DNA from: a virus
Taxonomy: Duplodnaviria > Caudoviricetes
Direction: 5' to 3' (one strand)
DNA: 64,000 bases
Virus record (IMG/VR): IMGVR_UViG_3300033066_001904
Location: 22,763 to 86,762 of that record
Part shown: positions 22,074 to 52,029 of the stretch, piece by piece
Layout of the letters: each line of letters opens with the position of its first letter
Position numbering within the stretch: position 1 is the stretch's first letter
Notes under the pieces: model-generated
The model's database searches: none
What the model was told of the DNA's origin: nothing
The model's input: only the letters and a program-made list of their open reading frames with translations
Translations under genes and position numbers: made by a program

Positions 22074-22105
22074 GGTTATTGTTATTTTATATAAATATTA
22101 AATTT

Positions 22106-24196: not shown

Positions 24197-24219
24197 ATGT
24201 GTATAAATATTTAAGACTC

Positions 24220-25204: not shown

Positions 25205-25230
25205 ATTATATCTTTTGATATAAATATATA

Positions 25231-25455: not shown

Positions 25456-25489
25456 ATTAATTGTTTACAATAAATATTTTATAAAGTAA

Positions 25490-25514
25490 AAATGCTCGAA
25501 TAAATCGAGCATTT
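25490..25514 (-). terminator. rho-independent terminator after tail tube gene
   Basis: AAATGCTCGA/TCGAGCATTT stem with T tract on the minus strand. Confidence 0.8.
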
Positions 25515-25534
25515 CTTTTAAATTTAAAATTATT

Positions 25535-26020: not shown

Positions 26021-26063
26021 TTTTTAATTATTATTTCTATTAATAAATATTATTAATTATGAC

Positions 26064-27785: not shown

Positions 27786-27841
27786 TTTTTAATTAAATTT
27801 TATCTAATGATAAATATTAATAAATTAGCACAAAAACGTAA

Positions 27842-28012
27842 TTATTTTTGATCGTTAGTTACTTGCTTTGAGATTTCTTGCGCTATTACATTATAGGCAT
27901 TAGCCACATTCATAACATCATCAGCATTTTTAAATACGCCTTTTTTTATTGCTTTGTTGATAATATCCTTTATTACTAATAAAGAATTTTCTAAGTTTTG
28001 ATTTGGATTCAT
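27842..28012 (-). CDS. 56-aa hypothetical protein (below ORF-track cutoff)
   Basis: Hand translation MNPNQNLENSLLVIKDIINKAIKKGVFKNADDVMNVANAYNVIAQEISKQVTNDQK. Confidence 0.6.
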   Translation of the reverse strand: MNPNQNLENSLLVIKDIINKAIKKGVFKNADDVMNVANAYNVIAQEISKQVTNDQK

Positions 28013-28030
28013 AAATTTTATTTTAGAAAG

Positions 28031-28052
28031 TAAGGGGAATTAATTCCCCTTA
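28031..28052. terminator. perfect 22-bp palindrome, probable terminator
   Basis: taaggggaattaattcccctta just downstream of ORF 28061..28375. Confidence 0.6.
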
Positions 28053-28060
28053 AAAATTTT

Positions 28061-28375
28061 TTAGCTAGCCACTACAGTATATTCAATTCTATCTGCTGTT
28101 AAAGGTAGAGTTGAACTAAGAGGAATTTGGATAGAAATTATAGCTCCTAAAGAGTTATAAGCTGCTATCACAGCAGTTCCTGAACCTACTACTGTCATAG
28201 TAATGTCAGCTTTAGCTTGACCAGGTACTAAAGCTACAGAACAATTACTTTGACCCGCTACGTAAAAACCAGTAAGAGATTGTACAGAATTATCTACATT
28301 AGAATAACCTGTAAGACTTACTCTTTTTGTTACATTAGGATTTAAATCCAAAGTTGCACCTGTTGTTGTTGCCAT
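28061..28375 (-). CDS. small beta-rich virion protein
   Basis: Thr/Ser/Val-rich composition, structural module context. Confidence 0.6.
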   Translation of the reverse strand: MATTTGATLDLNPNVTKRVSLTGYSNVDNSVQSLTGFYVAGQSNCSVALVPGQAKADITMTVVGSGTAVIAAYNSLGAIISIQIPLSSTLPLTADRIEYTVVAS

Positions 28376-28404
28376 TTTTTTTTATTTTTAATTTGTAATA
28401 AATA

Positions 28405-30402
28405 TTAATCATTTGTAGTTTTAGCTGCTAAATAGTAAGTATTTCCATCAATTACTACTGTAATAGTTCTATTAGGACTTGTAGGAGAAATACTATTAAC
28501 AGAATTAGCTGAAATTATTGATTCTCTTACAGAGCCGGATCTTACAAAATATAAATTAGTACCATCATATTCCATTGAACCACTTGTTGGGGTGGTTTGT
28601 AAAGCTCCCGACGTAAATTTAAGGGGAGAGCAGTTACTTCCTGTAGCTCCTCCTTTAATATGAAGATATGCTGTAGGAGCTGTAACTCCAACTCCTAAAT
28701 TACCTGTACTATTACCTGTAGGAGGAGTTGTTCCATTTCCTAATTGTCCATTATCTGTAAGAGTAGTTTGTCCTATTGACCTAACGAAAATTGAACCTGT
28801 TGATGGGGTTCCTGCTGATCCTAATGTTCTGTAAACAGCATATTGATAACTTCCTGTACAAACAGTCCAGCTTAAAGTAATTGTATTAGAACCAGCTAAA
28901 GTAGCATTACCATTAGGAACAGTAATTTCATTACTAGCGGCATATCCTCCATTGGCTAATTTAGCTACTATAACATACTTATAAGCAGTTGACCCAGTAA
29001 CACCATTAACTACATAACTAGCTGAGGGAACTTGAGTAGCAGCTAAAACTAATCCATTAGCATACATATCTCCTTTAAATTGAGCCATATATCCTACGTC
29101 TCCTGTTCCAGTATTAGTTTCACCCCAAACCTGATGTCCATGACTATACATAGTTGATCCTAATCCTGACGCATTAGTAAAAGTTAGGGTAGTTGTATTT
29201 GAAGATGCATATGATATAGCTGCTAATCTATTAACATTAGATGTAAATACTGTATTCCATCTGAAACCATTTGCTCCATTATTATAAGTATTATCCGTAA
29301 ATGGAACTATACTTCCTTTAGTTATCATAGCACTCCAAAATCCTGAGGCACCTGTAGGAGAATCAATATACAATCCACAATAACGAGGGTTAGTAGCTCC
29401 AGGACCAGCATTAAATGTAGGATTTAGAAATAGAGCGGGCATTATATCATTTGTGAATGAACCAGATCTACCAGTTATTGTAGGTGCTATATATGCTGCA
29501 CTTTGAGATGTATTAGTTTGAGTATATGAACCTGTTACTACTAATGCATTACTTGAACTCCACTCTAAACCAATTTGGACGTCTCCATCAAATCTATTAG
29601 AACCCCCATCTACCCACACAGCATAGTTATTTCCACCGCTTCCTGTTACTATTGGAGATGCACTAGAAGATTCTACATATAATGTTGCTGTATTTAATAA
29701 AAATGAGCTTGTTGTACCTAAAGTTACAGCTGTCATAGGTCTAACAGCTAAATTAGCACATAAAGATGATGTTCCAACACCTATTGTAAAAGAACTTGCT
29801 CCTACTAGTGTACTAGCTCCTATTATTCCATTTGTTAATTGAGCTGTTACACTTGTATTTGCTCCTAAAAGTAATCTGAACCATGTACCTAGACCTTGGA
29901 TATTACCTGCTGTTACTCCACTATTAGTAGCTCCACTACCTGCAGGAATATATAAATTTGATGTAGATGTTACAGTTTGAATAAGATTATGTTGAGTAGT
30001 CATATTAAAGGTCATAAATCCTGTACCCCCACTATCACTAGCTACAGTCCAAGAAAGACCTCCATTTACATCTGATTTAATATATGTACCCCTAACATCT
30101 CCTACTTGCCCAATATATAATGCGGCAGTAGTAGTAGCATTATCTGGTTGTATTACTCTTAAACAACTATTTAAAGTATTTGTTGAAACTCCTGTGTTTA
30201 TAAAGGTTGGACGAATATCTACTGCTCCGTTATAAGTTCCTGCTCTTTGAGAAATTATAGTTGGTTCAAATGAAAAAGCTCTATTAAATGTATATTGCCC
30301 TGATGATGGCACAACAGCACTATTATAGAAAGTAGGTTTAAATACCGATACTTCATTCGATTGATGTACTTGAGGACTTGATATACCAAATGATGATTGC
30401 AT
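28405..30402 (-). CDS. tail fibre / receptor-binding-like protein
   Basis: Gly/Ser/Thr-rich beta repeats, FN3-like segment, GNLGVGVTAPTAYLHIKG. Confidence 0.65.
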   Translation of the reverse strand: MQSSFGISSPQVHQSNEVSVFKPTFYNSAVVPSSGQYTFNRAFSFEPTIISQRAGTYNGAVDIRPTFINTGVSTNTLNSCLRVIQPDNATTTAALYIGQVGDVRGTYIKSDVNGGLSWTVASDSGGTGFMTFNMTTQHNLIQTVTSTSNLYIPAGSGATNSGVTAGNIQGLGTWFRLLLGANTSVTAQLTNGIIGASTLVGASSFTIGVGTSSLCANLAVRPMTAVTLGTTSSFLLNTATLYVESSSASPIVTGSGGNNYAVWVDGGSNRFDGDVQIGLEWSSSNALVVTGSYTQTNTSQSAAYIAPTITGRSGSFTNDIMPALFLNPTFNAGPGATNPRYCGLYIDSPTGASGFWSAMITKGSIVPFTDNTYNNGANGFRWNTVFTSNVNRLAAISYASSNTTTLTFTNASGLGSTMYSHGHQVWGETNTGTGDVGYMAQFKGDMYANGLVLAATQVPSASYVVNGVTGSTAYKYVIVAKLANGGYAASNEITVPNGNATLAGSNTITLSWTVCTGSYQYAVYRTLGSAGTPSTGSIFVRSIGQTTLTDNGQLGNGTTPPTGNSTGNLGVGVTAPTAYLHIKGGATGSNCSPLKFTSGALQTTPTSGSMEYDGTNLYFVRSGSVRESIISANSVNSISPTSPNRTITVVIDGNTYYLAAKTTND

Positions 30403-34429: not shown

Positions 34430-34779
34430 TATTTAAGATTTTGTTGACGTAATTTAACGTATTTATCTAAAGTATCTAAATCAGCTTTAGCTAAAGATAA
34501 TAATTTCATTATAGTTCCAGCTGTTTGTTTAATATTTTCATCATCGTGGAACATTTTATATGGAGCTAGTTCTGTTCTCATTTTAGACAATTGAGATTTC
34601 ATTCTACCAAAATTAGCTAAATTTTCAACTTTTTGAAATTCAGCTCCGGTACGGGGATCAGTCTCATTTGAACCTAATCTAAAGCCCTTGTCAATTAATT
34701 CCTGTTCGGAATCTTTTGCTTTGTATCCACGAGGCATTTGAGTATATACTTCTCTTACTATTTGTATTAATGTTTTCAT
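34429..34779 (-). CDS. hypothetical protein with tag-like N-terminus
   Basis: Starts MKTLIQIVRE. Confidence 0.6.
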   Translation of the reverse strand: MKTLIQIVREVYTQMPRGYKAKDSEQELIDKGFRLGSNETDPRTGAEFQKVENLANFGRMKSQLSKMRTELAPYKMFHDDENIKQTAGTIMKLLSLAKADLDTLDKYVKLRQQNLK

Positions 34780-35381
34780 TATATTTCTATTGTTTTAATA
34801 ATCTCTACATTTTGTTCAGGAATAACATATAAATATTCGTCTGACCCGTATGTATGTTTTTCTTTCTCTAATTTCATTAAAGGAAAATATTGTGATTTTT
34901 TTAATCTTTTTACATTAAATTCATCAAACCATTCATAATATATTTTATTTTTTTCATCATAATGAAAATAAAATTCATTATCTATTTGAATTACGTTTTC
35001 AGATTCCCACACACTAAGAATTTCTTTTGGATATAATACAGCTCTAATTTTATTAGGTATATTTACACCAATTTCATCTAATTTACCAACAATTTGAATT
35101 TGAGATTTAGGAATAATTAATAATATTCTATTACCATCCTGATATTTTTTAAACCATTTTTTTAAAATATTACTATCACCCTCATACTGATCATAAGTAT
35201 AATAATATCCTGGAATACAGTGGGCAGATATTGGTGTATTTCCATCAAAGCACAGAATATCAGTATCTTCGCCATAATCTTTTATAAGTATTGTACCGAG
35301 TAATTCATTACTTTCATATGCTTTTAACTTATGAGGATCGTTAATACCTATTTCACGTAATATATTTTTAAAAGTTATCAT
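34779..35381 (-). CDS. two-module EIGxNxP-tagged protein
   Basis: MITFKNILREIGINDP plus internal KLDEIGVNIP. Confidence 0.7.
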   Translation of the reverse strand: MITFKNILREIGINDPHKLKAYESNELLGTILIKDYGEDTDILCFDGNTPISAHCIPGYYYTYDQYEGDSNILKKWFKKYQDGNRILLIIPKSQIQIVGKLDEIGVNIPNKIRAVLYPKEILSVWESENVIQIDNEFYFHYDEKNKIYYEWFDEFNVKRLKKSQYFPLMKLEKEKHTYGSDEYLYVIPEQNVEIIKTIEI

Positions 35382-35923: not shown

Positions 35924-36283
35924 TTATTTTATATTGTGTAATATTATTAAAGCATTATTATACCCTAATCCAAGAGTAATGCAATATTTATAAAGATATG
36001 GTAAATCAAATGCATCCTCAGCACTATCCTCTACTTCAAAGACATAAATATCTTTTATAGTAAAATTATCATAATATAATTTAGCATATTTATCATTTTC
36101 ACTAGGATTTTCTATACTATCTCCTAAATCCTTCATGTAATATTTATAATTATCATAAAGATATAAATTCTGAATTAAAGCATACCCATCTTGGTCAGAA
36201 GTTGTAATATAATCTAAAATTTCCTTTTTAGTTATTGGTTTATTTATACCAATTTCAGGTAATATGTTTTCAAATTTAATCAA
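35924..36283 (-). CDS. EIGxNxP-tagged protein
   Basis: Starts MIKFENILPEIGINKP. Confidence 0.7.
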   Translation of the reverse strand: MIKFENILPEIGINKPITKKEILDYITTSDQDGYALIQNLYLYDNYKYYMKDLGDSIENPSENDKYAKLYYDNFTIKDIYVFEVEDSAEDAFDLPYLYKYCITLGLGYNNALIILHNIK

Positions 36284-36611
36284 CTTCTATCTTTAATGTG
36301 TTTTTGGGAATTCTAATCCAACTATATTCATCACTATCATCATCATCAACTATTTTATATTTTATATTATGTTTTTTTACAATATTAATAAAATCATTAA
36401 TATCTTTTTGATAATTTTCATCACTTTTCTCAAATTCTATACTAACTGTATCTGGATTATAATCCTCATTCCACATTCCCGCATATGATTTATCCCCATA
36501 TGTTATTAAATATTGTTCTGAACCATCTCCTGCAAAGTCAACAATTGCATTAAAAATTTTATTTGGATTATTAATACCTATTTCACATAATATTTGTTTA
36601 AATGTTATCAT
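36276..36611 (-). CDS. EIGxNxP-tagged protein
   Basis: Starts MITFKQILCEIGINNP. Confidence 0.7.
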   Translation of the reverse strand: MITFKQILCEIGINNPNKIFNAIVDFAGDGSEQYLITYGDKSYAGMWNEDYNPDTVSIEFEKSDENYQKDINDFINIVKKHNIKYKIVDDDDSDEYSWIRIPKNTLKIEVD

Positions 36612-36928
36612 TACATTTCCTTCTTTAAAATAGTTTTATATCTTGGCATAAATTGCATTAATCCTTTAATAGGAATTGCTTTCTTTTTTATCAAGTCTAT
36701 CTCTTCTCGGGGAGTTGAACTTACAACATATTTTACGTGTAATAAAGCAAATTCCCATTGAGGTGTTTTTTTAGTGTCTAAAAATGAATTTTGTTCTACT
36801 TTTACAACTACAACACCTTCTATTGCTCTTAATAAATTATATATTTCTACCTTATTAAAACGAGTATCTGTTTTAATTAAAACTTCACATTCAAATAGGT
36901 TTAATGCTTCTTTTAATATACTAATCAT
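36611..36928 (-). CDS. hypothetical protein with tag-like N-terminus
   Basis: Starts MISILKE. Confidence 0.6.
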   Translation of the reverse strand: MISILKEALNLFECEVLIKTDTRFNKVEIYNLLRAIEGVVVVKVEQNSFLDTKKTPQWEFALLHVKYVVSSTPREEIDLIKKKAIPIKGLMQFMPRYKTILKKEM

Positions 36929-37629
36929 TTATATTTCCATTTAAAATTTTTAGCAGATTGTATTCTTCCTTTAAGAACTTGACAAAGATGACCATTATCT
37001 ATCCCTAAACACATTGAAGCTTTTTTAGCACTTTCCCATTCACATATAAAATTTCCATTTAAATCATATTGTAAAATAGGTTTTTTAATCCAAACATGAT
37101 TTTTAAGTTTAAAAGGATTTTCCTTTTTGATTTTAGAAATTTTTTCTTTTGTTATATGATATTTTTTACCTTTTTTAGCTTGAGATATTTTTTCTTTTTG
37201 TTCTTTGGTAAATTTATATCCTAACGCATACTTATTTCCTATTTTTGATTGACCTATTTTTTGTTTTCTTTCTTCAGAAAATTTTTTACCTTTATTAGCT
37301 TTAGATATTTTTTGTTTTGTTTCTTCACTTTTAGGACCACTTCCTCTATCATATATTTCTGTAAATAAAATATTACTTTTATTTACTTTTTCTAAAAAAA
37401 ATTTTTTCCAATATATTTCTTTTTCATTTAATTCTTCTTTTGAACATTTTTCTAAAATTTCAAATTGGTGATTTTTAGGGCCATGATTTTTTAAAGAATT
37501 ATATAATTTTGGACCTATACTAGTTTTATGTAATTTTATATAATTATTCCATCTACTTTCAATATTAATAGATTGTCCTATATAAACTTTTTCTGAAGGT
37601 GACGTTATTTTATAAATTCCTATACTCAT
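36925..37629 (-). CDS. GIY-YIG homing endonuclease with NUMOD3/NUMOD1 domains
   Basis: GIYKITSPSEKVYIGQS, ETKQKISKANKG repeats, ILQYDLNG...WESAKKAS. Confidence 0.92.
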   Translation of the reverse strand: MSIGIYKITSPSEKVYIGQSINIESRWNNYIKLHKTSIGPKLYNSLKNHGPKNHQFEILEKCSKEELNEKEIYWKKFFLEKVNKSNILFTEIYDRGSGPKSEETKQKISKANKGKKFSEERKQKIGQSKIGNKYALGYKFTKEQKEKISQAKKGKKYHITKEKISKIKKENPFKLKNHVWIKKPILQYDLNGNFICEWESAKKASMCLGIDNGHLCQVLKGRIQSAKNFKWKYK

Positions 37630-37654: not shown

Positions 37655-38803
37655 CTAAAACACATAAATAGGAAGAGGAATTTGAGAAATAATCTGCTGA
37701 ACTGACTGTGCTTCAGAAACTTGATTTTCAAGTTGTGTTTTTCTAGACACCATATCTAATGTTGCTCTAAGTTGTTCAAGTAACTTAGCTTTTTCATCAC
37801 GAGCATCAGTTAATAAATCTTGTTGATTTAAAGAAACTTCAGCGCCAGGAATTGGGGTTGTTTGATATTTACCCCTTACATAAGCTAACATTTCCTTAAC
37901 CAACGCTAAAGCATATTGTCTAATCCATTGTTTACCAATTGCATTAAGTTGAGAAAATACTGGGTTTTCATATGGTACATTTCCTATATTTGTTATAAGA
38001 TCTGTACGTCCATTACTTGAAGCTACTACACTATTTCTTTCATCAATTAAAATGTAGTGAAATAACAACATTTTATCAATTTCTGGAATTGGAAATATTC
38101 TTAATTTATTATTGTGGATGTCAAATGAGAAAGCTGATTTACGAATTTGGTCATTTAGTTCGATGGATTGAATTTTTTGGACGTCAAAATATATAGGCAT
38201 TAGTAAAAAGTTAATGCCTGGTGAAAATTGCCCAAATCCAAATGATTCTAATAATGATTGAATTCCGGTTCCTGTACCTGCGTATGGATCAAAATATCTA
38301 ACAATAGCAGGTGGTTCTTCATAAAAAACTCTTTTAATTTCTGCTGACCCTGTTATTCCTTTTGCAGCTAATATAGCGTTCAAGTCATAATCTTGAACAG
38401 ATGCTGTTAGAGCAAAAGAACAAGTATAATAGTTTGTATAACCACCAGCACCGGCTTCTGAAGCATAAGTTTCAGATATTCTTATAACTGACCCTAAATT
38501 TGGAGTTACTAGTTGATTATTAAATGAAGAGCCTGTAGAATTACCTTCCATTGAAAGATAATTTTCTCTTACTTTATATTGATAAATTTCGTTACCATAA
38601 GTAGTAACAGCTTCTTCTAGAGCAGCATAAAAATTTATGTCTTGTAGTTCAATATTGACAATAGGGTACCCTAAACGCTCTGCAGCCCAGCGCGCAAATT
38701 GAGGTCCCTCTATTTGATATGAACTATCATTATCATAAAATCCAAAAGGTGTAGATCCTGATATAGGACCTGCACTACCCGACCATATTGGTATATTAGC
38801 CAT
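37655..38803 (-). CDS. neck protein (gp13-like head-tail adaptor)
   Basis: RLGYPIVNIELQD, WIRQYALALVKEML..VRGKY..IP. Confidence 0.8.
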   Translation of the reverse strand: MANIPIWSGSAGPISGSTPFGFYDNDSSYQIEGPQFARWAAERLGYPIVNIELQDINFYAALEEAVTTYGNEIYQYKVRENYLSMEGNSTGSSFNNQLVTPNLGSVIRISETYASEAGAGGYTNYYTCSFALTASVQDYDLNAILAAKGITGSAEIKRVFYEEPPAIVRYFDPYAGTGTGIQSLLESFGFGQFSPGINFLLMPIYFDVQKIQSIELNDQIRKSAFSFDIHNNKLRIFPIPEIDKMLLFHYILIDERNSVVASSNGRTDLITNIGNVPYENPVFSQLNAIGKQWIRQYALALVKEMLAYVRGKYQTTPIPGAEVSLNQQDLLTDARDEKAKLLEQLRATLDMVSRKTQLENQVSEAQSVQQIISQIPLPIYVF

Positions 38804-38828
38804 TAATTAACAGTATTTCGTATAAATA

Positions 38829-39500
38829 TTAAGAATCTCTATGATCTGAATATATATTTAAAATGTGTTCCACAATAGGATCTCTGTGATTTGTTTTAAG
38901 AGTTACAACTCCAAATCCTTCAACAGATGTTAAATTATTACATATGAAATTAAAACCAGACATTTTTCTATCTTTAAGATCAATTTGGGCTGTATCTCCA
39001 CAAATTATCATTCGAGATCCAGAGCATATTCTTCCTAGTAATAATTCCATTTGTCGATGAGTTATATTTTGACCTTCATCAACAACTACGCAACAATTAG
39101 ATAAATTTCTTCCACGCATGAATGCTAAAGGAATAACTTCTATATTACCATCCACAATTTCTTTATCAATTTTTTCTTTATTGTAGAGACGGTACATATT
39201 ATCGTATATTGCAGCCACATAAGGTGCTAATTTATCGTCTTTAGTACCTGGTAGATATCCTATTTCTTCACCAGATGTTACTGCTGGTCTTGTTAAAATT
39301 ATTTTTTCCACTTCACCTTTAAATAGTAAATCAAGAGCAACTTGGGCTGCAACCATAGATTTACCTGATCCTGCTGATCCTTTTAAAACTGTTATTTTAT
39401 TTTGGAAAATTACTGACTTAGCTTGTTTTTGTTCGTCATTAAGTTGTATTTGAAACCTAATTGGATTTTTCGGAGTGCGCTTATTTTTTTGCTCTTCCAT
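38829..39500 (-). CDS. phoH: PhoH-family ATPase
   Basis: GSAGSGKS, ILTRP, GYLPG, AFMRGR, VDEGQN, GDTAQID, NHRDP. Confidence 0.93.
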   Translation of the reverse strand: MEEQKNKRTPKNPIRFQIQLNDEQKQAKSVIFQNKITVLKGSAGSGKSMVAAQVALDLLFKGEVEKIILTRPAVTSGEEIGYLPGTKDDKLAPYVAAIYDNMYRLYNKEKIDKEIVDGNIEVIPLAFMRGRNLSNCCVVVDEGQNITHRQMELLLGRICSGSRMIICGDTAQIDLKDRKMSGFNFICNNLTSVEGFGVVTLKTNHRDPIVEHILNIYSDHRDS

Positions 39501-39517: not shown

Positions 39518-40939
39518 TTATATATCTAGCATTTTTAAATTTCCTTTTGAATCATAACCAAAATTGTTATTGTGAACATCAATATATTTTTTATTTAAAT
39601 CTTTTAAAATATTGTGGATAAGAAGATATAATTTTTTATATTTTTCAAATAGTTCTGGGTTTTGTTGTGCAAATTCCTTAAATAGATCTTTGTAGTGAGA
39701 CTTCTCATAATCACCTGCATTGTACCATCCTCTTACTAAAGCATATGTCCATTCAGCTAAATCATGAGGACTTAAACTATAGTTTAATTTTTTTCTAATA
39801 AAATTAGAAATATTTAAAGCATCATCTTTAAAAGTTTCATCATCTAATTTTTCTAGAACAACATATTTGTCTGTTATTTTTTCAATTTTTGGAAAGTATT
39901 GAGGATATTTTTGAAATATGTTTATCCAATATGATGCATTATCTTTCGCTGCTTGATTTCTAAATGTTTTTATTACAAAATTTGGATTTTTTATAAATGG
40001 ATAAACTTCATGTTCTGAACCATTTTTAGAATTTTTACGTTGAATATCTAATTCATTTATATCTAAAAGATCTTTATCTTCATATTTTTCAACATGTTTT
40101 TGTAAATCTTGATATAAATTATAAACTTTTAATGACGACAAATACTTATCAACCCAATTAAATATGTTATCTTCGTTATATGGTTTATTAAAACCATATT
40201 TTCTTAATATATTAAAATATTCACGTGCTCCTGAGGCATCACATAATCCACTATGTATTTTATCTTTTATAAGTTGTTTTATTTTTTCATTTATATTAGG
40301 ATTATTTATACCTATTTCATCTAGTGAATCTTTAAATTTATTAAATCCTGTGAAATCTACATATTTAGCATCAAATATTATTTCATTTTCATTTATTACC
40401 TCGTAAGGTATATGATGCTTCTCTAAAAATTGTACAGCTGATTCAAAATATTTATCATTCCTAATATGAGTAACACTAAATTTAGAAGGTTTTCCCATAT
40501 TATAATAACCAAGATAAAAAAACTCTTGATAACCAAATTCATCCTCCGGATCTTTAAAATAAAAACATGATCTTTCCTGATTACGTGGTTTCAATATAAT
40601 GGGAGGTTTATTAACACCTATCTCTTTTAAATTATTAACGATCTGAACTCGATCTTTAGGAATACCATATGTAATATAATGTTCAGATTCTTCTAATATT
40701 TGACAGTATTTAAAATAGCGCCAATTTGTAAAATTAATAACATAATTAGGTTTAACAATGTGTTTACACCAATAACCATGAAATGGTTCACTCTTATTAT
40801 CTCCATCAAAAAAAAATTCATCATCTATTTTAATAAGTATACGATCATTATGATACCAATTATCTTTTTTTACAGCCTTTATTTTTCCTGGTGTATTTAC
40901 ACCTATTTCCTTTAAAATTTCTACAAATTTCAACTTCAT
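39518..40939 (-). CDS. multi-module EIGxNxP-tagged polyprotein with C-terminal kinase-like domain
   Basis: Three tags (EIGVNTP, EIGVNKP, EIGINNP); final module GSEHEVY...VIK...DVHNNNFG...MLD. Confidence 0.7.
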   Translation of the reverse strand: MKLKFVEILKEIGVNTPGKIKAVKKDNWYHNDRILIKIDDEFFFDGDNKSEPFHGYWCKHIVKPNYVINFTNWRYFKYCQILEESEHYITYGIPKDRVQIVNNLKEIGVNKPPIILKPRNQERSCFYFKDPEDEFGYQEFFYLGYYNMGKPSKFSVTHIRNDKYFESAVQFLEKHHIPYEVINENEIIFDAKYVDFTGFNKFKDSLDEIGINNPNINEKIKQLIKDKIHSGLCDASGAREYFNILRKYGFNKPYNEDNIFNWVDKYLSSLKVYNLYQDLQKHVEKYEDKDLLDINELDIQRKNSKNGSEHEVYPFIKNPNFVIKTFRNQAAKDNASYWINIFQKYPQYFPKIEKITDKYVVLEKLDDETFKDDALNISNFIRKKLNYSLSPHDLAEWTYALVRGWYNAGDYEKSHYKDLFKEFAQQNPELFEKYKKLYLLIHNILKDLNKKYIDVHNNNFGYDSKGNLKMLDI

Positions 40940-40961
40940 ATCAATAAATATAGATAAAGAA

Positions 40962-41006: not shown

Positions 41007-42629
41007 TTAAACTGTTTCTAATCCTGCAACATATATCTTTCCATAATAATCAGGACGAATCATCTTCTTAGCGTAACGAGTCATTAAACCTTTTCTTGGT
41101 GTGAAGGTTGAAGGATCGTAAAGAAGAGGAGTCATAATTAACGGAACATATGGTGCAAATACAGCTCCACATTCTAGGAATTGAGCTCCTTTATAACCCA
41201 TAAGAATTATATTCTCAGTCATATAAGGATTTTTGTATACCTTGTAACGACTATTTAGGCTACCAATTTTTTGCATACCAAAATTAAATTCCATTTTTTC
41301 ACCATCACCGTCTGAAGCAAATCCAGGGATTGATTCAAGAACAGTTGCTACTGTAGGTGAAGTTACTAAGAAATTAGCACCACCTCTTAAAGTTAACTGG
41401 TGGATTTTGTTTGATACTTTTTGTAGTTTAGTACCAATTGTTTGGAACCAACCACCTTGAGTATTGTAGAAACCACCTGTTGTAGCACTTGTTTGTGTGA
41501 ATGAACTACCATTCCATTGTTGGTTGTTTACTGCTGACCAGTAATCAACTGTAAATGCGTTCACAATTAACATGTCAAGTATTTCAAGATCAATTTCCAT
41601 TGAAATGTATTGAGATAAAATACCTGTTAATTCAGCTTCAGCATCAATGCTATGGTAAGCGTTAAGATCCTGAGCGAATTCTGGTGTCCATTGTGCCTTT
41701 AATTTACGTGTTTTGGCAGTAATAGATTCTGATTTTAACTGAACATTAATTTCAGCGATTGAAATAGGTTGTGCTTGTGAAATTTGTCCTGCACCTGCAC
41801 TTCCAAATGCATCTTCAAAGTCACCTCTTTGATCAGGAGCAGTTTGTTTATTATAGAATAAAGTAACTGAACCAGTTGGTGTAACTGAAGTAGCTGAAGT
41901 ACCACCTGCAATTAATATCAGGTTATTACCACTTTGAGAAGTAAATTGTTGTAAAATATCTGGAGATGTAACACCTGAACCAGATACTACAAATGATCTA
42001 ATATCAAATGTATCAAATGATGATGTAACTGCATTATAGTTAGTACCACTAACTGTAATTTTTACTAAGCTACCTGTATTGTAGTTAGTATCAAAATTAA
42101 TATCTGCCCAAGCAACTGAACTTGTAACATAAGTTACTGATGCAGTAGCATTGTTTAATGAATACGCAAATCTACCAGCTTCATAAAGAGAACCAGTTAT
42201 GATTGTAGTATTATTTGTGGCATTTGCTCCATAAAGTGAATCGCCTGATGCGAACGGAGCTCTGTTTGAACCATATTTGAAATCTAGATAGAATACTAGA
42301 CCAGAAGGTAGGTTCATGGGTTGAACTGAAACAAATTCTTTTGCTGCAATTTCTCCAAATACTCTACGTACAAGAGGAAGAGCTACACCTGCCCAGTTTT
42401 CTGAATTGTAACCTCCACCTGTCATAGATGTAGTACCACCGGTAATGTTACCTTCAGTGATTAATTGTTTAGCTTGGTTTTCAAGTAATACCGCTATTGT
42501 ATTACGCTCATTTTCAGTCTTTAAATTCTTTAAAAGACCTGATTTATCCCACTTAGAAGTAAGACGTTTTGCGTCGTCTGATACTTGCTTAAATTGGTTT
42601 GATGATTCTAATAATTGTTGAACATTCAT
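41007..42629 (-). CDS. major capsid protein (gp23-like)
   Basis: VSVQPMNLPSGLVFY, AKTRKLKAQWTPEFAQDL, FAPYVPL, TRYAK. Confidence 0.96.
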   Translation of the reverse strand: MNVQQLLESSNQFKQVSDDAKRLTSKWDKSGLLKNLKTENERNTIAVLLENQAKQLITEGNITGGTTSMTGGGYNSENWAGVALPLVRRVFGEIAAKEFVSVQPMNLPSGLVFYLDFKYGSNRAPFASGDSLYGANATNNTTIITGSLYEAGRFAYSLNNATASVTYVTSSVAWADINFDTNYNTGSLVKITVSGTNYNAVTSSFDTFDIRSFVVSGSGVTSPDILQQFTSQSGNNLILIAGGTSATSVTPTGSVTLFYNKQTAPDQRGDFEDAFGSAGAGQISQAQPISIAEINVQLKSESITAKTRKLKAQWTPEFAQDLNAYHSIDAEAELTGILSQYISMEIDLEILDMLIVNAFTVDYWSAVNNQQWNGSSFTQTSATTGGFYNTQGGWFQTIGTKLQKVSNKIHQLTLRGGANFLVTSPTVATVLESIPGFASDGDGEKMEFNFGMQKIGSLNSRYKVYKNPYMTENIILMGYKGAQFLECGAVFAPYVPLIMTPLLYDPSTFTPRKGLMTRYAKKMIRPDYYGKIYVAGLETV

Positions 42630-42661: not shown

Positions 42662-43831
42662 TTAGATAATGTTTGCTAGTTTTTGCATACGAGAAATAAC
42701 ATCATTAGACTCAACAATTTGTTTTCTAGGAGAAACTCCTAAAGCTTTTGAAGCAAATCCTAATGATTCTTTAACCATTTGTTTTTTATTATTTGCTTTT
42801 CCACCAATTGTTGTTTGAAGTGACTCATAAATTAATTTAGCTTCTTGAGTTGTTCTTGCTTTATCAAATGAAGCTAAAACTTTAACCTTTTGAGATTCAT
42901 TTAAATTTTGAGCTTTAAATATTTTATTTACATAAAGCATTTTAGCGTTAAATAAATTTACCTCATTTAGTTCAGAACGAAGAGTTTTGATTGTTTGAAT
43001 AGCTTTTGCTAATTCTTTTGATTCATTCATGTTTGTTTTTCCTACTTGTTTGTAACCTAATTTGCTTGTAGTAGCAATAGCTTTTTTACCAGCAGGCCAT
43101 TTTTGAATTTTTGCTTCTTCTAAATCTTCTTCTTCTTCATTTAAAGCGTCTAGTTCAGATAGTAATTCGTTAAGATCGAAATCATCTTCGTCTAAAGAAT
43201 CATCTTCTTCACCACCTATTGGAGGATTCATATCGTCACCGCCCATATCTGAACCGGCTCCCATATCGTCTCCACCCATGTCGTCCATTCCATCACCCAT
43301 ATCGTCGCCTCCTAGATCATCACCCATATCTGAAGCTCCCATTCCACCAGCTGATGCTATAACATCACTGATAAGATCTTTAAATTCTGCAACTGTTAAG
43401 CTGCTGATTTTTTCATCTTCTGGTGAAGATTCTTCTGAATGGCTTTGTTTTGGACTTGAATCCGATTTTGGTTTTGGTTTTGAATCTGATGAATCTTTCT
43501 TTTTAGGTGCTGAATCTTTCTTATCATCATCTTTAGCTTCGTCTAGTTCATCTTCATCATCTAGTTCAGCTAAGATAGAATTAAGATCGAAATCTTCTTC
43601 TAAACCTTCATCTCCATATGATGCATTATCATCCATCATTTCATCTAAGTTTTCATCTTGATTTTCATCAAGTTCTTCTTCTTCTTGTTCTCTAAGTTTT
43701 GCTGAGATCATTGATTGAATTTTTGGTGTTAATGCTTCTTCTAGAGCTGCTTTAGCGTTAAGTAAAGCTGCCTCACGAACTGCTTTTGCATCTGCAATAG
43801 CTTGTTCAAATAAACTTTTGTTTTTTGACAT
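42662..43831 (-). CDS. prohead core scaffold protein (gp22-like)
   Basis: Highly acidic middle with many L-x-E sites, LNEVNLFNAKMLY, ends RMQKLANII; directly upstream of capsid gene. Confidence 0.8.
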   Translation of the reverse strand: MSKNKSLFEQAIADAKAVREAALLNAKAALEEALTPKIQSMISAKLREQEEEELDENQDENLDEMMDDNASYGDEGLEEDFDLNSILAELDDEDELDEAKDDDKKDSAPKKKDSSDSKPKPKSDSSPKQSHSEESSPEDEKISSLTVAEFKDLISDVIASAGGMGASDMGDDLGGDDMGDGMDDMGGDDMGAGSDMGGDDMNPPIGGEEDDSLDEDDFDLNELLSELDALNEEEEDLEEAKIQKWPAGKKAIATTSKLGYKQVGKTNMNESKELAKAIQTIKTLRSELNEVNLFNAKMLYVNKIFKAQNLNESQKVKVLASFDKARTTQEAKLIYESLQTTIGGKANNKKQMVKESLGFASKALGVSPRKQIVESNDVISRMQKLANII

Positions 43832-43978: not shown

Positions 43979-44251
43979 CTAGGAATTTAGAGAATTTAAT
44001 AATTTTAGCAAATCATTATATATTAGTTGTAAAGTTTTAGGAGATAGTTTGTCTAACTGATATTGAAAATCGCTATAGTCTAAATTATATTTGTTAATTA
44101 TATCTGAAACACTAGTATATTCATCAGGTAGCCAAAAATTATAATATTTAGGATGTCTTTGAATTTTGTGCTCTAAATCTTTAATTTTTTCTGGAGTTAC
44201 GCTAGGAATATTTACTCCTATTTCGGCTAATATTTTGCGAAATTTAATCAT
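43979..44251 (-). CDS. EIGxNxP-tagged protein (helical module)
   Basis: Starts MIKFRKILAEIGVNIP. Confidence 0.7.
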   Translation of the reverse strand: MIKFRKILAEIGVNIPSVTPEKIKDLEHKIQRHPKYYNFWLPDEYTSVSDIINKYNLDYSDFQYQLDKLSPKTLQLIYNDLLKLLNSLNS

Positions 44252-44882
44252 TTTTATCCGGGCATAGAGGACATATGCCTGTCATGTTACATATGATCTC
44301 GGTAATTAAAGTATGAACTTTTTGATATTTGTTATAACCATTATTATATATTTTACCTTCTTTTAAAGAATTTCCTGCTCTTCTCATAAAGGCGTTTGGG
44401 GTAGATGGAACGGACACTAAATCCCAACATAGTAGATCAAAATCATCTTGAACTTCTACAGCTTCTCCCATTTGTTGGACAGATCCCATACCTCTTGAAG
44501 ATATTCCCAATGGAATACCTGCTAATACTAACTCTTGTGCTATTTTACCTGACGGTGTATTTAATAATAGTAATTCTCCCATAAGATCATTACCTTCCCA
44601 CCATATTTCTGTAATAAGATGTGATACATTTGATAAATTTATTATAGTAGCATCAGGGTGGTCTAGTTCTCCCATAGAATTTTTATTAGCTATGGGTCCT
44701 TTTACATATTTTTCTGCTTCTCTAGCTAAAACATCACGAGGGTATACACGACCATTTCCATTTTTTTGTTCTGCTTCTTGTAATTTACCTCTAAGACGTA
44801 TTCTTCCATCATTTCCTCTTCCTTCAGAAAGAACTAATTTAGCGTCACTATGGTATGTATAATCTACTAGTAATTGTTTCAT
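44244..44882 (-). CDS. prohead protease (gp21-like)
   Basis: NGNGRVYP, GELDHP, GISSRGMGS, WDLVSVPS. Confidence 0.93.
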   Translation of the reverse strand: MKQLLVDYTYHSDAKLVLSEGRGNDGRIRLRGKLQEAEQKNGNGRVYPRDVLAREAEKYVKGPIANKNSMGELDHPDATIINLSNVSHLITEIWWEGNDLMGELLLLNTPSGKIAQELVLAGIPLGISSRGMGSVQQMGEAVEVQDDFDLLCWDLVSVPSTPNAFMRRAGNSLKEGKIYNNGYNKYQKVHTLITEIICNMTGICPLCPDKND

Positions 44883-46367: not shown

Positions 46368-47597
46368 TTATTTTCCTTTTAAAGTGGCTAAACTTTTATC
46401 TTTATAGCTACTAATATTTTTTACTCTACCTTGAACAACTTCTAAAGTCCAATTATGAACTTGATCTATTCCTGCATTTTGTAAAACTAACACATCACCT
46501 TGTTTACCTGTATTATCTCTAACAAATACATCATATGTTCCATTAGGTTTAGCGTGAAGAACTACAAATCCTGTAATTTCATTGTTAACTATCATTTGAC
46601 GGAATAAACCATATTCATTTACATAGTAAACATCTTTAAAGTCAGGTGAAGTTTGTAAAATTTTCCAACCTTCTTTTCTCATTTGGTCTCCCATATTTTT
46701 TAAAGGAGAATATATGGTATCTACTATGGTAGGTACTTTATATAAAGTGTCTTTTTCTGCTTTAGATAACTTTGGAGATAATATTAAAGCAGCTATAATA
46801 GATGCTGTTAATAAACCTTTTTTAGAATATTCTTTAATTTTAGTTAAAACACGTTTAAAATCAACAGATTCTTGTAAATTTCCCAATATATCGTCCACAA
46901 TAGCTTGTTCTTGATTGCTGTCTTCTTGTAAAGATTTCATCTTTTCATTTAAAGAAGCCATCATTTCTGAAATTTGTCCAACAAATTGTTGGGTTTCTTT
47001 CCAATATTTAATACCATCACCTTCTGATAGTTCTTGTTTCATTTTAGAAGTATATTCAACTATACTGTCAATTTCTTGAAGTCTTTTTTTAACTTGTTTA
47101 ATTGCTCTATTTAATTGTTCATTTTTTGAACGATATGATATACTTTGTTTAAATTGTTTAAATGAATTTTCTTTTAACAATTCACTTTTAATAATTTCGT
47201 ATATTTTATCGTGTTGACATGAACATTTTTCTTTTCCTTTGAATGCTTTAGGAGTAGAATAGGCTCCTACATCACCTGATGTTGAACCTTCATCTTCTTC
47301 TAAATTAGGATTAAGTTTATTCCAAGTTTTTACTAAATCATTATAAAGTTTATTTAATTTAATGGAATCCAAAGCGGAAAGCCATTCATCATAATCGTCA
47401 TCAGGATCGTAACCATATGACATAGCTATTTTATCTACGCTTATATCATTTTCTTCATCATTCAAAACAGTATATGATATTTTTTTTGATAATTCATATA
47501 CTTTTTCTGGAGTTATAGAAGGACTATTTACTCCTATTTCTTTAAGGATAAATTTATTAATATATTCTTTTAAACTATTTGGCATATTTAACTTCAT
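46368..47597 (-). CDS. head-associated protein with N-terminal EIGxNxP module
   Basis: FILKEIGVNSP, later STSGDVGAYSTPKAF and several L-x-E sites. Confidence 0.6.
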   Translation of the reverse strand: MKLNMPNSLKEYINKFILKEIGVNSPSITPEKVYELSKKISYTVLNDEENDISVDKIAMSYGYDPDDDYDEWLSALDSIKLNKLYNDLVKTWNKLNPNLEEDEGSTSGDVGAYSTPKAFKGKEKCSCQHDKIYEIIKSELLKENSFKQFKQSISYRSKNEQLNRAIKQVKKRLQEIDSIVEYTSKMKQELSEGDGIKYWKETQQFVGQISEMMASLNEKMKSLQEDSNQEQAIVDDILGNLQESVDFKRVLTKIKEYSKKGLLTASIIAALILSPKLSKAEKDTLYKVPTIVDTIYSPLKNMGDQMRKEGWKILQTSPDFKDVYYVNEYGLFRQMIVNNEITGFVVLHAKPNGTYDVFVRDNTGKQGDVLVLQNAGIDQVHNWTLEVVQGRVKNISSYKDKSLATLKGK

Positions 47598-48472: not shown

Positions 48473-50371
48473 TTATATGTTCTTAATATTTTTTTCGTCT
48501 AATATATCGCCCTCTTTTTCAAAGACCATTTCCTTTTTGCTAAAATCTATGGATTCTAATAATTTTTTGTTTTTCATATATTCTGCTAAAGCTAGTGGGG
48601 AACCTCCTTTAGGAACACCATTTTCGTCACCTTTTCTCATTAAATTTTGATTAGCTGTACGAGAATTCTCTTTACTTCCTAGTCTATCTTTACCTAAAGG
48701 ATCTTGTTGTGTATTAATTATAGACGATTTTTCAACAGGTCTACCTAAAGTTTTCTTTTCATCATATCCCGGAGGAGTAACTCCATTGTCGTTAGCACCG
48801 GATCTACCTAGACCTGACATTTGGGCTAAATCATGAGGAGTACCATAAGATTTACCAGATTTTGCAGGATCATTACCTTCATTTTCAATTTGATTATGTC
48901 TAAATACTCGTTTTTTATCTTCTAAAACTAGATCTCTATATTCATCATATTGATCCTCAGAAAACTGAAATACTTTATCATATATCCAATCCGATGGTAA
49001 TAAGCCTGTATCTTGAATACTTCTAGCTAGATCTACTTTTTCTTTCCATAAAGCCACTTTTTCTTGTTCATATACAACTGATGGAGTTGTTAGAGATAAT
49101 TCAAAATTAGATAATGATTCTCCGTCATATCCCTGAACATATAAATGCACTAATGCTATTTTGTATAGTTCTGATAGAACAATACGTTGTATACGTTCTA
49201 CAGTACGAGCAAATCTAATATCTTCTGCGGCTAATGTAGCTTTACCTTGTAAATCTTTTTCAAATCCAAAAAATGCTTTAGGTACTTTTAGAGCAGCTAA
49301 CATTTCATCACGTAAAAAATTAACGTCTTCTATGGCATTATATTGTAGACCAGGCATGTTTTCTATTCTTGTAGTAGCATCATTACCTCTCATTGGAATG
49401 TAGAAATCTTCTAATACGTTTTGTACGTTATATTTTAAGTTATATTCACCTGTTTGTTGATCAATGTAAGGAGTTTTCTTCATTTTTTGCATAACTTTTT
49501 GCATATAAGCATCTACCTCATGAGGGGGTATATTTCCTACATTTATATAAAATGCTCTTTTATCTGCTGCTCTTGTAATACGATGTAGTAACATCGCATC
49601 CTTCATTAAAGTATATTGTTTATACGTTTTTCTAGCTGGCTCTATAAATGCTCTTCCATAAGGTAAATAGTTGGCATCTGTTAATAATCTAAAGTGAGCT
49701 ACTTCATAGTTTTCAAACTTAATTTTACCATCTCTATCTCTAGAACGAGAATTTATTCCACCCGCAGAAATAACCATAGGGTCTATTTTAAAAGAAACAT
49801 AATTAGGATTATTAGGATCCATCCCTTCTTCTCTAATCATATCATAAACTGATAAAGGAGTTACATTGTATACTCCGAATTTTTCTGCTATTTCCATGTG
49901 TAGATAAAAATCTCCATATTTACACATATTTCTTATCCACAACCAAAGATTAAATTCTATATTTAAAATATCATAAAATAAATTATATAATATTTTTTGA
50001 ATACTTTCATCAGCACTTCTAATTTGTAATACTTCTTGAGCTTCATTTTTTAATGTAGATTCATCTGCAATAATATCTAAAGAAGAAGCTATTATAGATT
50101 CTGTATCCATAGCCTCATAATCCGTATACAATTGAATTCTAAGTGTTTGATAATTCATTGTAGGATTATACGGCATATTAGCTCCGTATCTATGTAACTT
50201 AGTAAATCTATCTATTAATGAATTGGTTTTTACATTACCATAAGATTGTATTCTATCAACGTCAGTTACTTTTAATTGATTTCCTCCTACATTTCTTATA
50301 ATTACATCAGTACTAAATAATCTTTTTAATTTTGTAAAAAGACCATCATTTTGATTATTATTTTCTGCCAT
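48473..50371 (-). CDS. portal protein (gp20-like)
   Basis: YGRAFIEPARK, RAFYINVGN, EDFYIPMRG, LKVPKAF. Confidence 0.95.
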   Translation of the reverse strand: MAENNNQNDGLFTKLKRLFSTDVIIRNVGGNQLKVTDVDRIQSYGNVKTNSLIDRFTKLHRYGANMPYNPTMNYQTLRIQLYTDYEAMDTESIIASSLDIIADESTLKNEAQEVLQIRSADESIQKILYNLFYDILNIEFNLWLWIRNMCKYGDFYLHMEIAEKFGVYNVTPLSVYDMIREEGMDPNNPNYVSFKIDPMVISAGGINSRSRDRDGKIKFENYEVAHFRLLTDANYLPYGRAFIEPARKTYKQYTLMKDAMLLHRITRAADKRAFYINVGNIPPHEVDAYMQKVMQKMKKTPYIDQQTGEYNLKYNVQNVLEDFYIPMRGNDATTRIENMPGLQYNAIEDVNFLRDEMLAALKVPKAFFGFEKDLQGKATLAAEDIRFARTVERIQRIVLSELYKIALVHLYVQGYDGESLSNFELSLTTPSVVYEQEKVALWKEKVDLARSIQDTGLLPSDWIYDKVFQFSEDQYDEYRDLVLEDKKRVFRHNQIENEGNDPAKSGKSYGTPHDLAQMSGLGRSGANDNGVTPPGYDEKKTLGRPVEKSSIINTQQDPLGKDRLGSKENSRTANQNLMRKGDENGVPKGGSPLALAEYMKNKKLLESIDFSKKEMVFEKEGDILDEKNIKNI

Positions 50372-50397
50372 TTGTTTATTTTATGTGTATAAATATT

Positions 50398-51984
50398 TTA
50401 TAGAACCCATGATACGTCAGTATATCCACCTTTACCATCAGGAATTCTATAGGGATTAATAACCCCATTAGGTATTGTGGGGTACATATCCTTATAAGGA
50501 TTTTCTGTTTTACCCATTCCTAGCATAGCTGCTTTTGTTAATTCCATCCCTTGTTGTAAGAATTTCATTGCTGTATCTCTTACAAAGAGCCCAATACCCA
50601 AACTCATTACTAAATCGTCATTATATCCTTGTTGAGCTTGTGCTTTTCCATTATGCCATATGAATACTCTTAATTCTTCCAATAATCTTTTTGATTTAAT
50701 AATTATTGCTTTTTCACGAATATATGCTTCCATTTTAGATATTACTAAAGGTCGTGTCTTAGGAGAAGTAGTAAATCCTGGAATAGTTTGTTCTGAATCC
50801 ATTTTATATAAAAATTTATCCATGTGCATATCTCCATATGATCTAGGTGAATAATACATATTATTGTATCCTCTTTCTAAGATAGTATTGACTACGTCCC
50901 ATCCTACCCCGGCATTTTCTACAACTAACATTGCATTATTATATTCTGTAGCTACAGATACTAACATATTTCCATATTCTCTTGTTCCTATTTGGGATTT
51001 ATATTCTGCTACTTGTATACAATCTGTCATATTAATTACATGAAAAGATGAATAGTCCATTCCATCTCCTCTTGCCACGTCAGCACATATAATATATTGT
51101 TTCGAGTAATCTACGTATTCCCAAATCCAAAAATCTCCTCCCATGAATCTACGCTCAATTGGTTCGACAACCCAATTTTCTTCATAGAAAGTTAGTATTT
51201 CATTTTCTACTACTGAGTTACCTGATCCTAAAAAGTCGCAATCATATTCTTGAGCAAATTCTCGAGCAGACATGTTAGCCTTTTCAGTATTATACCATTC
51301 CTGATCACGTTCAGGATGTAAATCCCATTTTAATTCTATAGGTTTAAATTCATTTTGATGTGTAACAGCTTCGATATAGGTTTTATGAAACCAGTTTCCT
51401 ATTCCATTTGGTGAAGATAATGCTATCATGGATCCTCCCGTAGCAATGGTGGGTTTAATACCTGTGTATATTTTATCTATATCCTCAATAAAGGCGGCCT
51501 CATCAACTATTAGTAAAGATATAGAGTATCTTCTACCTGCATCCGGTGCAGCTGATGATGCTATAATTTCTGAATTATTTGGTAATTTAAGAGATAGTTT
51601 ACTTTCTATTAGAGGTTTTTGGTTTCCTCTAAGCCATTTAGGTAAGTTATTGTACATAAATTGTACTTTTTCAACCATACCTTTAGCTGTTTCCTGTTTA
51701 GTTGCAACGCATAATACAACTTTATTAGGATTAAATAACATTAACCAAAGAGCATATCCGGCAGCTAAGGTAGAGAGACCTAGCTGTCTAGATTTATTAA
51801 CTATTACAAATCTGTTTTCTCTAAAATTGGATAAAACTTCTTCTTGGAAATCAAAAAGGTGAAATAAAATTCTACCTTTTATAGGGTGGGAAATATAACA
51901 ATATTTTCTAAAAAAATGGACCGGATTTAAACAACATTTAATGTATTCTTGTTTTATTATTTCCTTTATATTTACATCACTCAT
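50398..51984 (-). CDS. terminase large subunit (gp17-like)
   Basis: KSRQLGLST, LIVDEAAF, SSPNG, QEYDCDF, ADVARGDG.DYS, DDLVMS. Confidence 0.95.
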   Translation of the reverse strand: MSDVNIKEIIKQEYIKCCLNPVHFFRKYCYISHPIKGRILFHLFDFQEEVLSNFRENRFVIVNKSRQLGLSTLAAGYALWLMLFNPNKVVLCVATKQETAKGMVEKVQFMYNNLPKWLRGNQKPLIESKLSLKLPNNSEIIASSAAPDAGRRYSISLLIVDEAAFIEDIDKIYTGIKPTIATGGSMIALSSPNGIGNWFHKTYIEAVTHQNEFKPIELKWDLHPERDQEWYNTEKANMSAREFAQEYDCDFLGSGNSVVENEILTFYEENWVVEPIERRFMGGDFWIWEYVDYSKQYIICADVARGDGMDYSSFHVINMTDCIQVAEYKSQIGTREYGNMLVSVATEYNNAMLVVENAGVGWDVVNTILERGYNNMYYSPRSYGDMHMDKFLYKMDSEQTIPGFTTSPKTRPLVISKMEAYIREKAIIIKSKRLLEELRVFIWHNGKAQAQQGYNDDLVMSLGIGLFVRDTAMKFLQQGMELTKAAMLGMGKTENPYKDMYPTIPNGVINPYRIPDGKGGYTDVSWVL

Positions 51985-52029
51985 AAATTAGTTATTGTGT
52001 GTATATAAATATATAGAAAGGATAAAAAA

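Follow-up and report, generated by a model that had tools for sequence, protein, structure and literature searches.

Why should one gene of a T4-like phage carry a short peptide tag at its start and then again at the borders of its internal parts? The question is raised by an open reading frame (ORF) of 473 residues, hereafter called the target, in a stretch of 64,000 nucleotides (nt) of viral DNA (the window; bases 22763-86762 of IMG/VR record IMGVR_UViG_3300033066_001904, an 86.7-kb record that is ~52% complete and has 29% G+C). An initial annotation, made from the letters of the DNA, had proposed that four tagged junctions divide the target into modules of roughly 95, 100, 85 and 175 residues, each junction keeping an (L/I)-x-E site. 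The junctions are indeed found where they had been placed (ILKE11↓IGVNTP, NLKE106↓IGVNKP, SLDE208↓IGINNP and DINE296↓LDIQ, the arrow marking the predicted cut), with the (L/I)-x-E signature present at E11, E106, E208 and E296, and the modules measure 95, 102, 88 and 177 residues. We favor the view, at a probability of roughly 0.6, that the target encodes a late-expressed cargo polyprotein that would be packaged whole via its leader and then cut by a gp21-type protease into four head proteins.

The tag is far more frequent than composition would predict. Its core, E[ILV]G[ILV]N, occurs in 16 copies in the 86.7-kb record, as compared to a mean of 0.42 and a maximum of 2 in 50 shuffles, and every copy is on the coding strand and inside the window. 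Eleven EIG(V/I)N copies follow a 10-residue leader at the start of an ORF; the first tag of the target follows an 11-residue leader, and that of ORF 46368-47597 is found at residue 20. The internal copies comprise two in the target and one each in ORFs 34779-35381 and 60527-61945. Thirteen ORFs in the window are strictly tagged, and no tagged ORF searched matched a curated family of Pfam or PHROGs. At least 11 window ORFs start with M-I-K/T-F-x-x-I-L-x-E and then continue into unrelated bodies. The tag codons vary synonymously (ATT/ATA, GGT/GGA, CCT/CCA, TTA/CTA/CTT) and the DNA upstream of them is unconserved, indicating that selection acts on the peptide and not on a DNA repeat. Three other candidate explanations of the tag were rejected: a DNA repeat or recombination site, by the synonymous variation in the tags; internal translation starts, as no ATG, GTG or TTG heads the internal tags; and a double-glycine bacteriocin leader, given that the tag has no GG, GA or GS and that the supposed "cores" are folded domains of ~100 residues.

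If the tag serves both as a leader and as a junction, its two kinds of copies can be compared position by position. Among 20 distinct N-terminal tags from the window and four related IMG/VR fragments, the consensus is M1 I2 K/T3 F4 x x I7 L8 x E10↓I G I/V N x P, in which I2, F4, I7, L8 and E10 show little or no variation (L8 in 19/20, E10 in 20/20). The 32 non-N-terminal contexts all have L or I at position -2 and keep the Glu and IGVNxP, but their positions 2, 4 and 7 are unconserved. About two dozen of these contexts are true internal junctions; the set also includes the 11-residue leader of the target, the residue-20 tag of ORF 46368-47597 and ~6 single-hit contexts from unrelated contigs. 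Since the tags were selected on EIGVNxP, it is the upstream columns that provide independent evidence.

The pattern in these columns is the one expected from T4, where dissection of the 10-residue capsid targeting sequence of IPIII by suppression assigned residues 4 and 7 to targeting and residues 8 and 10 to processing (PMC9026906). An internal site needs the processing residues only and an N-terminal tag needs both, so the observed split between N-terminal and internal copies fits the T4 prediction. The target leader also has the layout of T4 ipII/ipIII and gp24; in the T4 record, the gp21 substrates read MKTYQEFIAE↓A (ipII/ipIII), MAKINELLRE↓S (gp24), MELITE↓L (Alt) and FLTE↓AEIGG (gp23). 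Tags that have lost IGVNxP retain [LI]-x-E↓[IL], as seen in EINE↓ISD, PLNE↓IGE, KLEE↓ISD and DINE↓LDI. A 670-residue ORF of the window, 56064-58076 (minus strand), which has no family match, starts with MITFKKILQE followed by YTDK and is devoid of IGVNxP, and the leader and the motif behind the cut are therefore separable.

Both a predicted processing enzyme and a second likely substrate are encoded close by. The gp21-type protease of the window aligns its GELDHP and SSRGMGS strings with GELNHP and SSRGLGS of T4 gp21, the His and Ser motifs thus being kept, and QLITE59↓GN of the capsid protein aligns with the T4 gp23 cut site FLTE65↓AE, from which we infer that the capsid protein would be cut at ITE59. 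The C-terminal part of the protease contains SLKE↓G and LITE↓I, possible autoprocessing sites akin to the reported C-terminal processing of gp21-type proteases.

As regards expression, the target had been described as lying directly behind the terminator of the capsid gene and as having a motif of its own, and both elements are in place: a terminator-like hairpin with an 11-pair stem (40985-40960, minus strand) separates the two genes, and ATATTTAT is located at 40944-40951 (minus strand), 12 nt 5' of the ATG. This motif has 33 copies on the coding strand of the 86.7-kb record versus 15 on the other strand, and ~20 of its copies precede ORF starts, chiefly of structural genes, by 12-33 nt (examples, on the minus strand, are 52005-52012, 50389-50396, 40944-40951, 38822-38829 and 22091-28405). 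We consider ATATTTAT a candidate late-promoter element whose role would be comparable to that of T4 TATAAATA, and its placement suggests that the target is co-expressed late with the structural genes. In combination, the tag layout, the split between N-terminal and internal copies, the gp21-type protease, the [LI]-x-E site of the capsid protein and the late-gene context strongly suggest that the tag directs proteins to the capsid and marks them for cleavage in the manner of T4.

Are the four modules independent units? An exhaustive phmmer search of the target against 1.8 billion representative proteins yielded 171 matches, most of which cover only residues ~294-473 and are stand-alone proteins of 170-210 residues. 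Module 1 corresponds to P0017 (102 residues) and P0099 (100 residues), both over the full length, and has paralogues in the window in ORF 34779-35381 (two copies) and ORF 18882-19229. The stand-alone counterparts of module 2 are P0028 (112 residues), P0057 (109 residues), P0033 and P0131, with residues 98-204 of the target matched and the small proteins covered over nearly their whole length. Module 3 is homologous to the 90-residue ORF 43979-44251, the N-terminus of ORF 46368-47597 and three modules of the very long protein P0002. According to the alignments, the stand-alone homologues have their own leader at the start and end where the next tag of the target starts. Relatives hold the cassettes in other combinations, namely, two module-1 copies in ORF 34779-35381 and P0020, modules 1 and 3 in P0021 and P0068, and module 1 with two copies of module 3 in P0012. 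These boundaries and combinations bear out the proposal of the initial annotation that the gene grew by in-frame accretion of tagged cassettes; judged from the sequence comparisons, the target is built by in-frame fusion of independently tagged cassettes. The module bodies are 25-47% identical and the tag cores are fixed, implying that the fusions are old and that the linkers are under purifying selection.

The extreme case is P0002 itself, a protein of 2192 residues with 17 tag junctions and 18 modules, among them five module-1 and three module-3 copies. It is the same protein as L013:6600-13187 (minus strand), the genomic context of P0002 and of the other homologues having been taken from IMG/VR loci. 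By eye, P0002 contains an HExxH string (LAHELVHRK); Pfam searches of P0002, this string included, and of the fused kinases described below gave no match. Thus, as in polyvalent-type proteins, all four modules of the target have stand-alone homologues, and modules recur recombined in P0012, P0020, P0021, P0068 and P0002. For the target in its entirety, a word-indexed search of 5.8 billion proteins retrieved no homologue of similar length other than the target itself and only three proteins among the shorter ones, tblastn against 50,697 phage records gave zero matches, and searches for related loci with the target as the query found none.

The last junction deviates from the tag consensus, and the cassette behind it accounts for most of the phmmer matches. 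Junction 4 can be aligned with the leaders at the start of stand-alone kinase-like proteins, as illustrated by MKLLDILRE↓LDIK of P0004, and this alignment identifies the degenerate junction as genuinely homologous to a leader; the Glu of the junction is at least 90% conserved in a 62-sequence alignment. The protein P0011 uses a tag dialect of the form INE↓LE[VI]xxP, to which the fourth junction of the target also belongs, suggesting that the kinase cassette kept its original tag.

Structure prediction for each module, which had been put forward as a check, was informative for module 4 and left modules 1 to 3 without a confident fold. For the whole target, single-sequence AlphaFold2 (AF2) gave a mean predicted local distance difference test (pLDDT) score of 38.6, which is unusable, and the ESM Atlas had no usable match to modules 1 and 2. 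Module 4, modeled with the 62-sequence alignment, reached a pLDDT of 90.7 and a predicted template modeling (pTM) score of 0.85, with the first 20 residues, junction 4 included, at pLDDT 61-68 and outside the fold. Foldseek matched the model to APH(2'') enzymes at an E value of 1e-5; with VIA-align, 50/50 best matches had the kinase fold (Z up to 8.6), including NleH1, OspG, Ark1, Bud32 and RIO; and a profile search of PDB sequences placed NleH1 and NleH2 on top (E value of 0.002-0.01). K324, D454 and D472 are invariant in the 62 sequences, as is N459 in a 12-sequence subset, and the chain stops one residue past the DFG-like Asp. The module thus displays a two-lobed fold, a Gly-rich loop, a VAIK-type Lys, a catalytic Asp with its Asn and a metal-binding Asp, features of the kinase superfamily, although no Pfam family covers it. 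On the basis of the model, module 4 is a C-terminally truncated protein-kinase-like domain with intact catalytic residues. Because this tagged kinase recurs, the group may commonly phosphorylate host targets upon injection.

From these elements, we infer packaging, cleavage at the junctions, injection and kinase targets in the following way. The leader M-x-K-F-x-x-I-L-x-E, like the T4 capsid targeting sequence, would bring the whole chain into the core of the assembling prohead, where the gp21-type prohead protease would cut each [LI]-x-E↓I-G-(V/I)-N-x-P linker behind its Glu. This would leave four products inside the head, i.e., two small domains, one helical domain and one C-terminally truncated protein kinase, and the released cargo would exit the head with the DNA at infection.

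Several points weigh against this reading. Proteases of the gp21 type are not known to require IGVNxP, the strongly conserved P' side of the tag. Its lack at the capsid cut site ITE↓GNITGG indicates that it is more than a protease requirement; it may have a different function, and cutting of the tag does not necessarily follow. Sites as short as [LI]-x-E abound in proteins of all kinds, making a match to the cleavage motif a weak argument by itself. Linker accessibility at junctions 1 to 3 is deduced from the homologue boundaries, single-sequence AF2 having given modules 1 to 3 no confident fold, and packaging and cleavage are here deduced from the sequence of an uncultured phage. The target might be an uncleaved multi-domain "polyvalent" protein whose tag serves in targeting or binding (e.g., to the scaffold core) and is repeated for avidity or as a flexible linker, the chain remaining intact in the head or being processed later by other means. 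Such a role would account for IGVNxP being conserved as strongly as [LI]-x-E when it is unneeded at the capsid cut site; known polyvalent phage proteins of 2-15 domains need no cut by a head protease (PMC5512222), and Asp at position 10 of the T4 sequence permits packaging without processing (PMC9026906). We nevertheless consider an uncleaved chain rather unlikely, as the loss of F4 and I7 alongside a strict internal [LI]-x-E fits cleavage better than targeting, tags without IGVNxP still have [LI]-x-E, and it seems doubtful that an intact P0002 of 2192 residues would pass the tail at ejection.

It is improbable, too, that the tag addresses machinery outside the head, such as a chaperone, tail or baseplate assembly, export or regulated degradation, and that its likeness to T4 is coincidental. 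The tagged genes 18882-19229 and 19528-19818 do lie between large ORFs that, by size and position, may belong to the tail or baseplate, and such an address would agree with the failure of every tagged protein examined to match curated families. However, the head module itself contains several of the tagged genes, and in many relatives MIKLxxILxE-type leaders, which end on [LI]-x-E and are without IGVNxP, head two conserved families of ~112 residues beside the head-tail adaptor gene. Moreover, 7/10 of the large viral records with the kinase family, located via a smaller alignment (A2), carry a clear Gp23 capsid gene, including 4/4 of those that are 97-100% complete. Separation of the modules in the absence of any protease, by 2A-like ribosome skipping or by autocleavage that would use the Asn in the N-x-P part of the tag, appears very improbable. 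The 2A motif of eukaryotic viruses reads D(V/I)ExNPGP, to which E-I-G-V-N-x-P bears only a superficial likeness: the tag has no NPGP, 2A is not known to work on bacterial ribosomes, and the tag is located at residue 10 of at least 11 window ORFs, where skipping makes no sense. Lastly, the idea that the motif arose by chance, by chimeric assembly or as a repeat of the DNA with no role in the protein is refuted by the excess of copies over the shuffled expectation, the synonymous variation in the tags and the occurrence of the same architecture on independent contigs.

Returning to a packaged and cleaved polyprotein, we tentatively extend it to a broader scheme, which we regard as possible, though below even odds. 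The [LI]-x-E↓IGVNxP cassettes, solo or spliced, would constitute a portable cargo-loading code by which one leader loads 2-18 effectors (up to 2192 residues) and the protease dices the chain in the capsid; IGVNxP on the new N-termini would act as a further signal, perhaps in DNA retention or ejection, and the dialect of a cassette would be kept when it moves between phage lineages, which seems to be the case for the kinase module of the target. Illustrative dialects are found on other T4-like contigs, and the recurrence of multi-tag proteins there also speaks for the main reading of a packaged and cleaved polyprotein. L039 uses NE↓LGINxPG, with three tags in a 458-residue ORF, and its contig also has a Gp23 capsid gene and a protease-like ORF; within L039:11131-13849, this tag is seen repeated within ORFs of 458 and 442 residues. 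L099, a contig with a Gp23 capsid gene, uses E↓[IV]K[VI]NxP and has a 643-residue ORF with four internal tags. As side observations, further T4-like phages have shared leaders of their own that terminate in [LI]-x-E: four ORFs of L124 start with MKIILSEEQLxxxIxE, and two adjacent ORFs of Flavobacterium phage immuto (L115:2736-4036) share a leader of the form NF(N/D)L(R/K)xFLxE↓NKLT.

How does the target relate to known systems? The closest parallel is provided by the T4 internal proteins IPI-III and Alt, which carry the capsid targeting sequence and are processed by gp21 (Mullaney and Black 1996, as reviewed in PMC9026906 and PMC3012670; Ip functions in PMC12373910). As in T4, unrelated small accessory proteins share a 10-residue leader in which position 4 is aromatic, positions 7 and 8 are hydrophobic and position 10 is Glu, and the phage has a gp21-family protease, a Gp23 capsid protein and a hypervariable set of cargo. 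In contrast to T4, whose leader resembles that of the target in layout but not in sequence and whose cargo shows no sequence homology to the target, six conserved residues, IGVNxP, follow the cut site, and the signal is reused as a linker between cassettes. In the literature searched, we found no T4-type phage described as joining all its cassettes by reuse of a targeting and cleavage tag, nor any description of a conserved IGVNxP behind the cut site.

The modular make-up, in turn, recalls the polyvalent proteins of phages and conjugative elements, in which several effector-type domains occur solo and shuffled and for which packaging and an analogy to viral polyproteins have been proposed (PMC5512222). 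The same study (Iyer, Burroughs, Anand, de Souza and Aravind 2017) describes, in Bacteroidetes phages, a kinase that lacks its C-terminal subdomain and also exists in stand-alone form, and proposes release via embedded peptidase domains (MPTase, assemblin-like). Its main text does not contain the word "linker", and we found no conserved inter-domain linker described in it. Leaving aside membership of the same clade, the target shares with these proteins the unrelated domains in one polypeptide and the kinase that is without the C-terminal subdomain and keeps its catalytic residues. It differs in that one short motif recurs at every junction and doubles as the leader of stand-alone cassettes and in that the target matched no Pfam or PHROG family and hence no embedded peptidase domain of the MPTase or assemblin-like type. 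The T4 targeting sequence, hypervariable internal proteins and polyvalent packaged proteins, the truncated kinase included, are thus already known.

Processed inner-body and ejection proteins are also found in the phiKZ-like giant phages 201phi2-1, phiKZ and SPN3US (PMC5694885, PMC9026906). There, a gp21-related protease likewise cuts many head proteins after Glu, propeptides can have multiple sites, and paralogues share N-termini, but the cuts remove propeptides of ~80 to >250 residues and not cassettes, and the motif is S/A-x-E. Polyproteins of eukaryotic RNA viruses resemble the target as proposed here, in that a single protease acts on a single translation product through a short motif that recurs at the junctions; since protease, domains and purpose (here the loading of cargo into the head of a DNA phage) are different, this is an analogy only. 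With regard to module 4, the minimal effector kinases NleH and OspG, the Ark1 RNA kinases, RIO, Bud32 and APH(2'') resemble it in their kinase-like fold and in the catalytic set of Lys, Asp, Asn and Asp, yet module 4 stands outside the Pfam families and ends one residue past its DFG-like Asp.

Head-packaged, injected proteins are the first weapons of a phage in a new cell, and so far they have been recognizable by sequence almost only among phages closely related to T4. The tag offers a sequence rule for candidate cargo in a group of uncultured T4-like phages. If the junctions are cut, it would moreover bring polyprotein logic to phages, with one targeting signal delivering many effectors in fixed proportions, and provide a natural template for packing T4-type capsids with several proteins at once.

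Table 1. Positions in the window of the target, its parts and the surrounding genes.
Feature	Position	Strand	Remarks
Target ORF, 473 residues	39518-40939	-	Four tagged modules; inside head module
N-terminal leader MKLKFVEILKE (residues 1-11)	40907-40939	-	Predicted targeting signal and first cut after E11
Module 1 (residues 12-106)	40622-40906	-	Starts IGVNTP; beta-rich family, end YGIPKxxVQIV
Junction 1/2	40604-40651	-	VQIVNNLKE106↓IGVNKP
Module 2 (residues 107-208)	40316-40621	-	
Junction 2/3	40298-40345	-	FNKFKDSLDE208↓IGINNP
Module 3 (residues 209-296)	40052-40315	-	Helical family; motifs (T)PEKI, KYG(Y/F), W(L/V), LYxDL
Junction 3/4	40040-40072	-	DLLDINE296↓LDIQ; degenerate tag, different "dialect"
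Module 4 (residues 297-473)	39521-40051	-	Predicted truncated protein-kinase-like domain; K324, D454, N459, D472
Second multi-tag ORF, 200 residues	34779-35381	-	Tags at E10 and E103; two module-1 copies
Third multi-tag ORF, 472 residues	60527-61945	-	FSLNE↓IGVILP near residue 103, FQLDE239↓IGINIP
Large terminase	50398-51984		T4-type head module
Portal	48473-50371		T4-type head module
gp21-type prohead protease	44244-44882	-	Predicted processing enzyme; phrog_207 E 1e-51; T4 gp21 structure 5JBL E 5e-16
Stand-alone tagged 90-residue protein	43979-44251	-	Module-3 family; between protease and scaffold genes
Acidic scaffold-like protein	42662-43831		T4-type head module
Gp23-family major capsid protein	41007-42629	-	PF07068 E 1e-77
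PhoH-like ORF	38829-39500		By eye and by annotation of the counterpart in phage immuto
Head-tail adaptor-like protein	37655-38803		T4-type head module

Nearly all genes of the window are on the minus strand. The closest cultured relative is Flavobacterium phage vB_FspM_immuto, with 55.6% identity of the capsid protein, and the group of uncultured T4-like phages to which the record belongs probably has Bacteroidota hosts, most likely Flavobacteriia. In 79 relatives found via the capsid protein (55-77% identity), PhoH usually comes directly after the capsid gene, and we therefore regard the target as an insertion at a variable spot. This comparison of the capsid-PhoH locus draws on the relatives found by their capsid proteins and not on the closest, tag-rich clade, whose four IMG/VR fragments yielded no capsid gene. 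The gap between capsid gene and PhoH (loci L036-L114) looks like a hot spot: empty in most relatives, it is occupied in others by small CxxC-rich ORFs of ~185 residues, which may be homing endonucleases, by a second paralogue of the capsid protein or by short ORFs with tail-fibre-like starts.

Two further arrangements in the window deserve mention. The tagged ORF 35924-36283 (minus strand) has no ATG; its TTG start overlaps the stop of the preceding tagged ORF, 36276-36611, by 8 nt in a different frame, and the two may represent a cassette pair that is split, coupled or one frameshift short of fusion. Between the adaptor gene and a conserved leader-bearing gene of 105 residues, a 234-residue ORF is inserted (36925-37629, minus strand) which, by eye, resembles a GIY-YIG homing endonuclease (IYKITSP...YIGQS).

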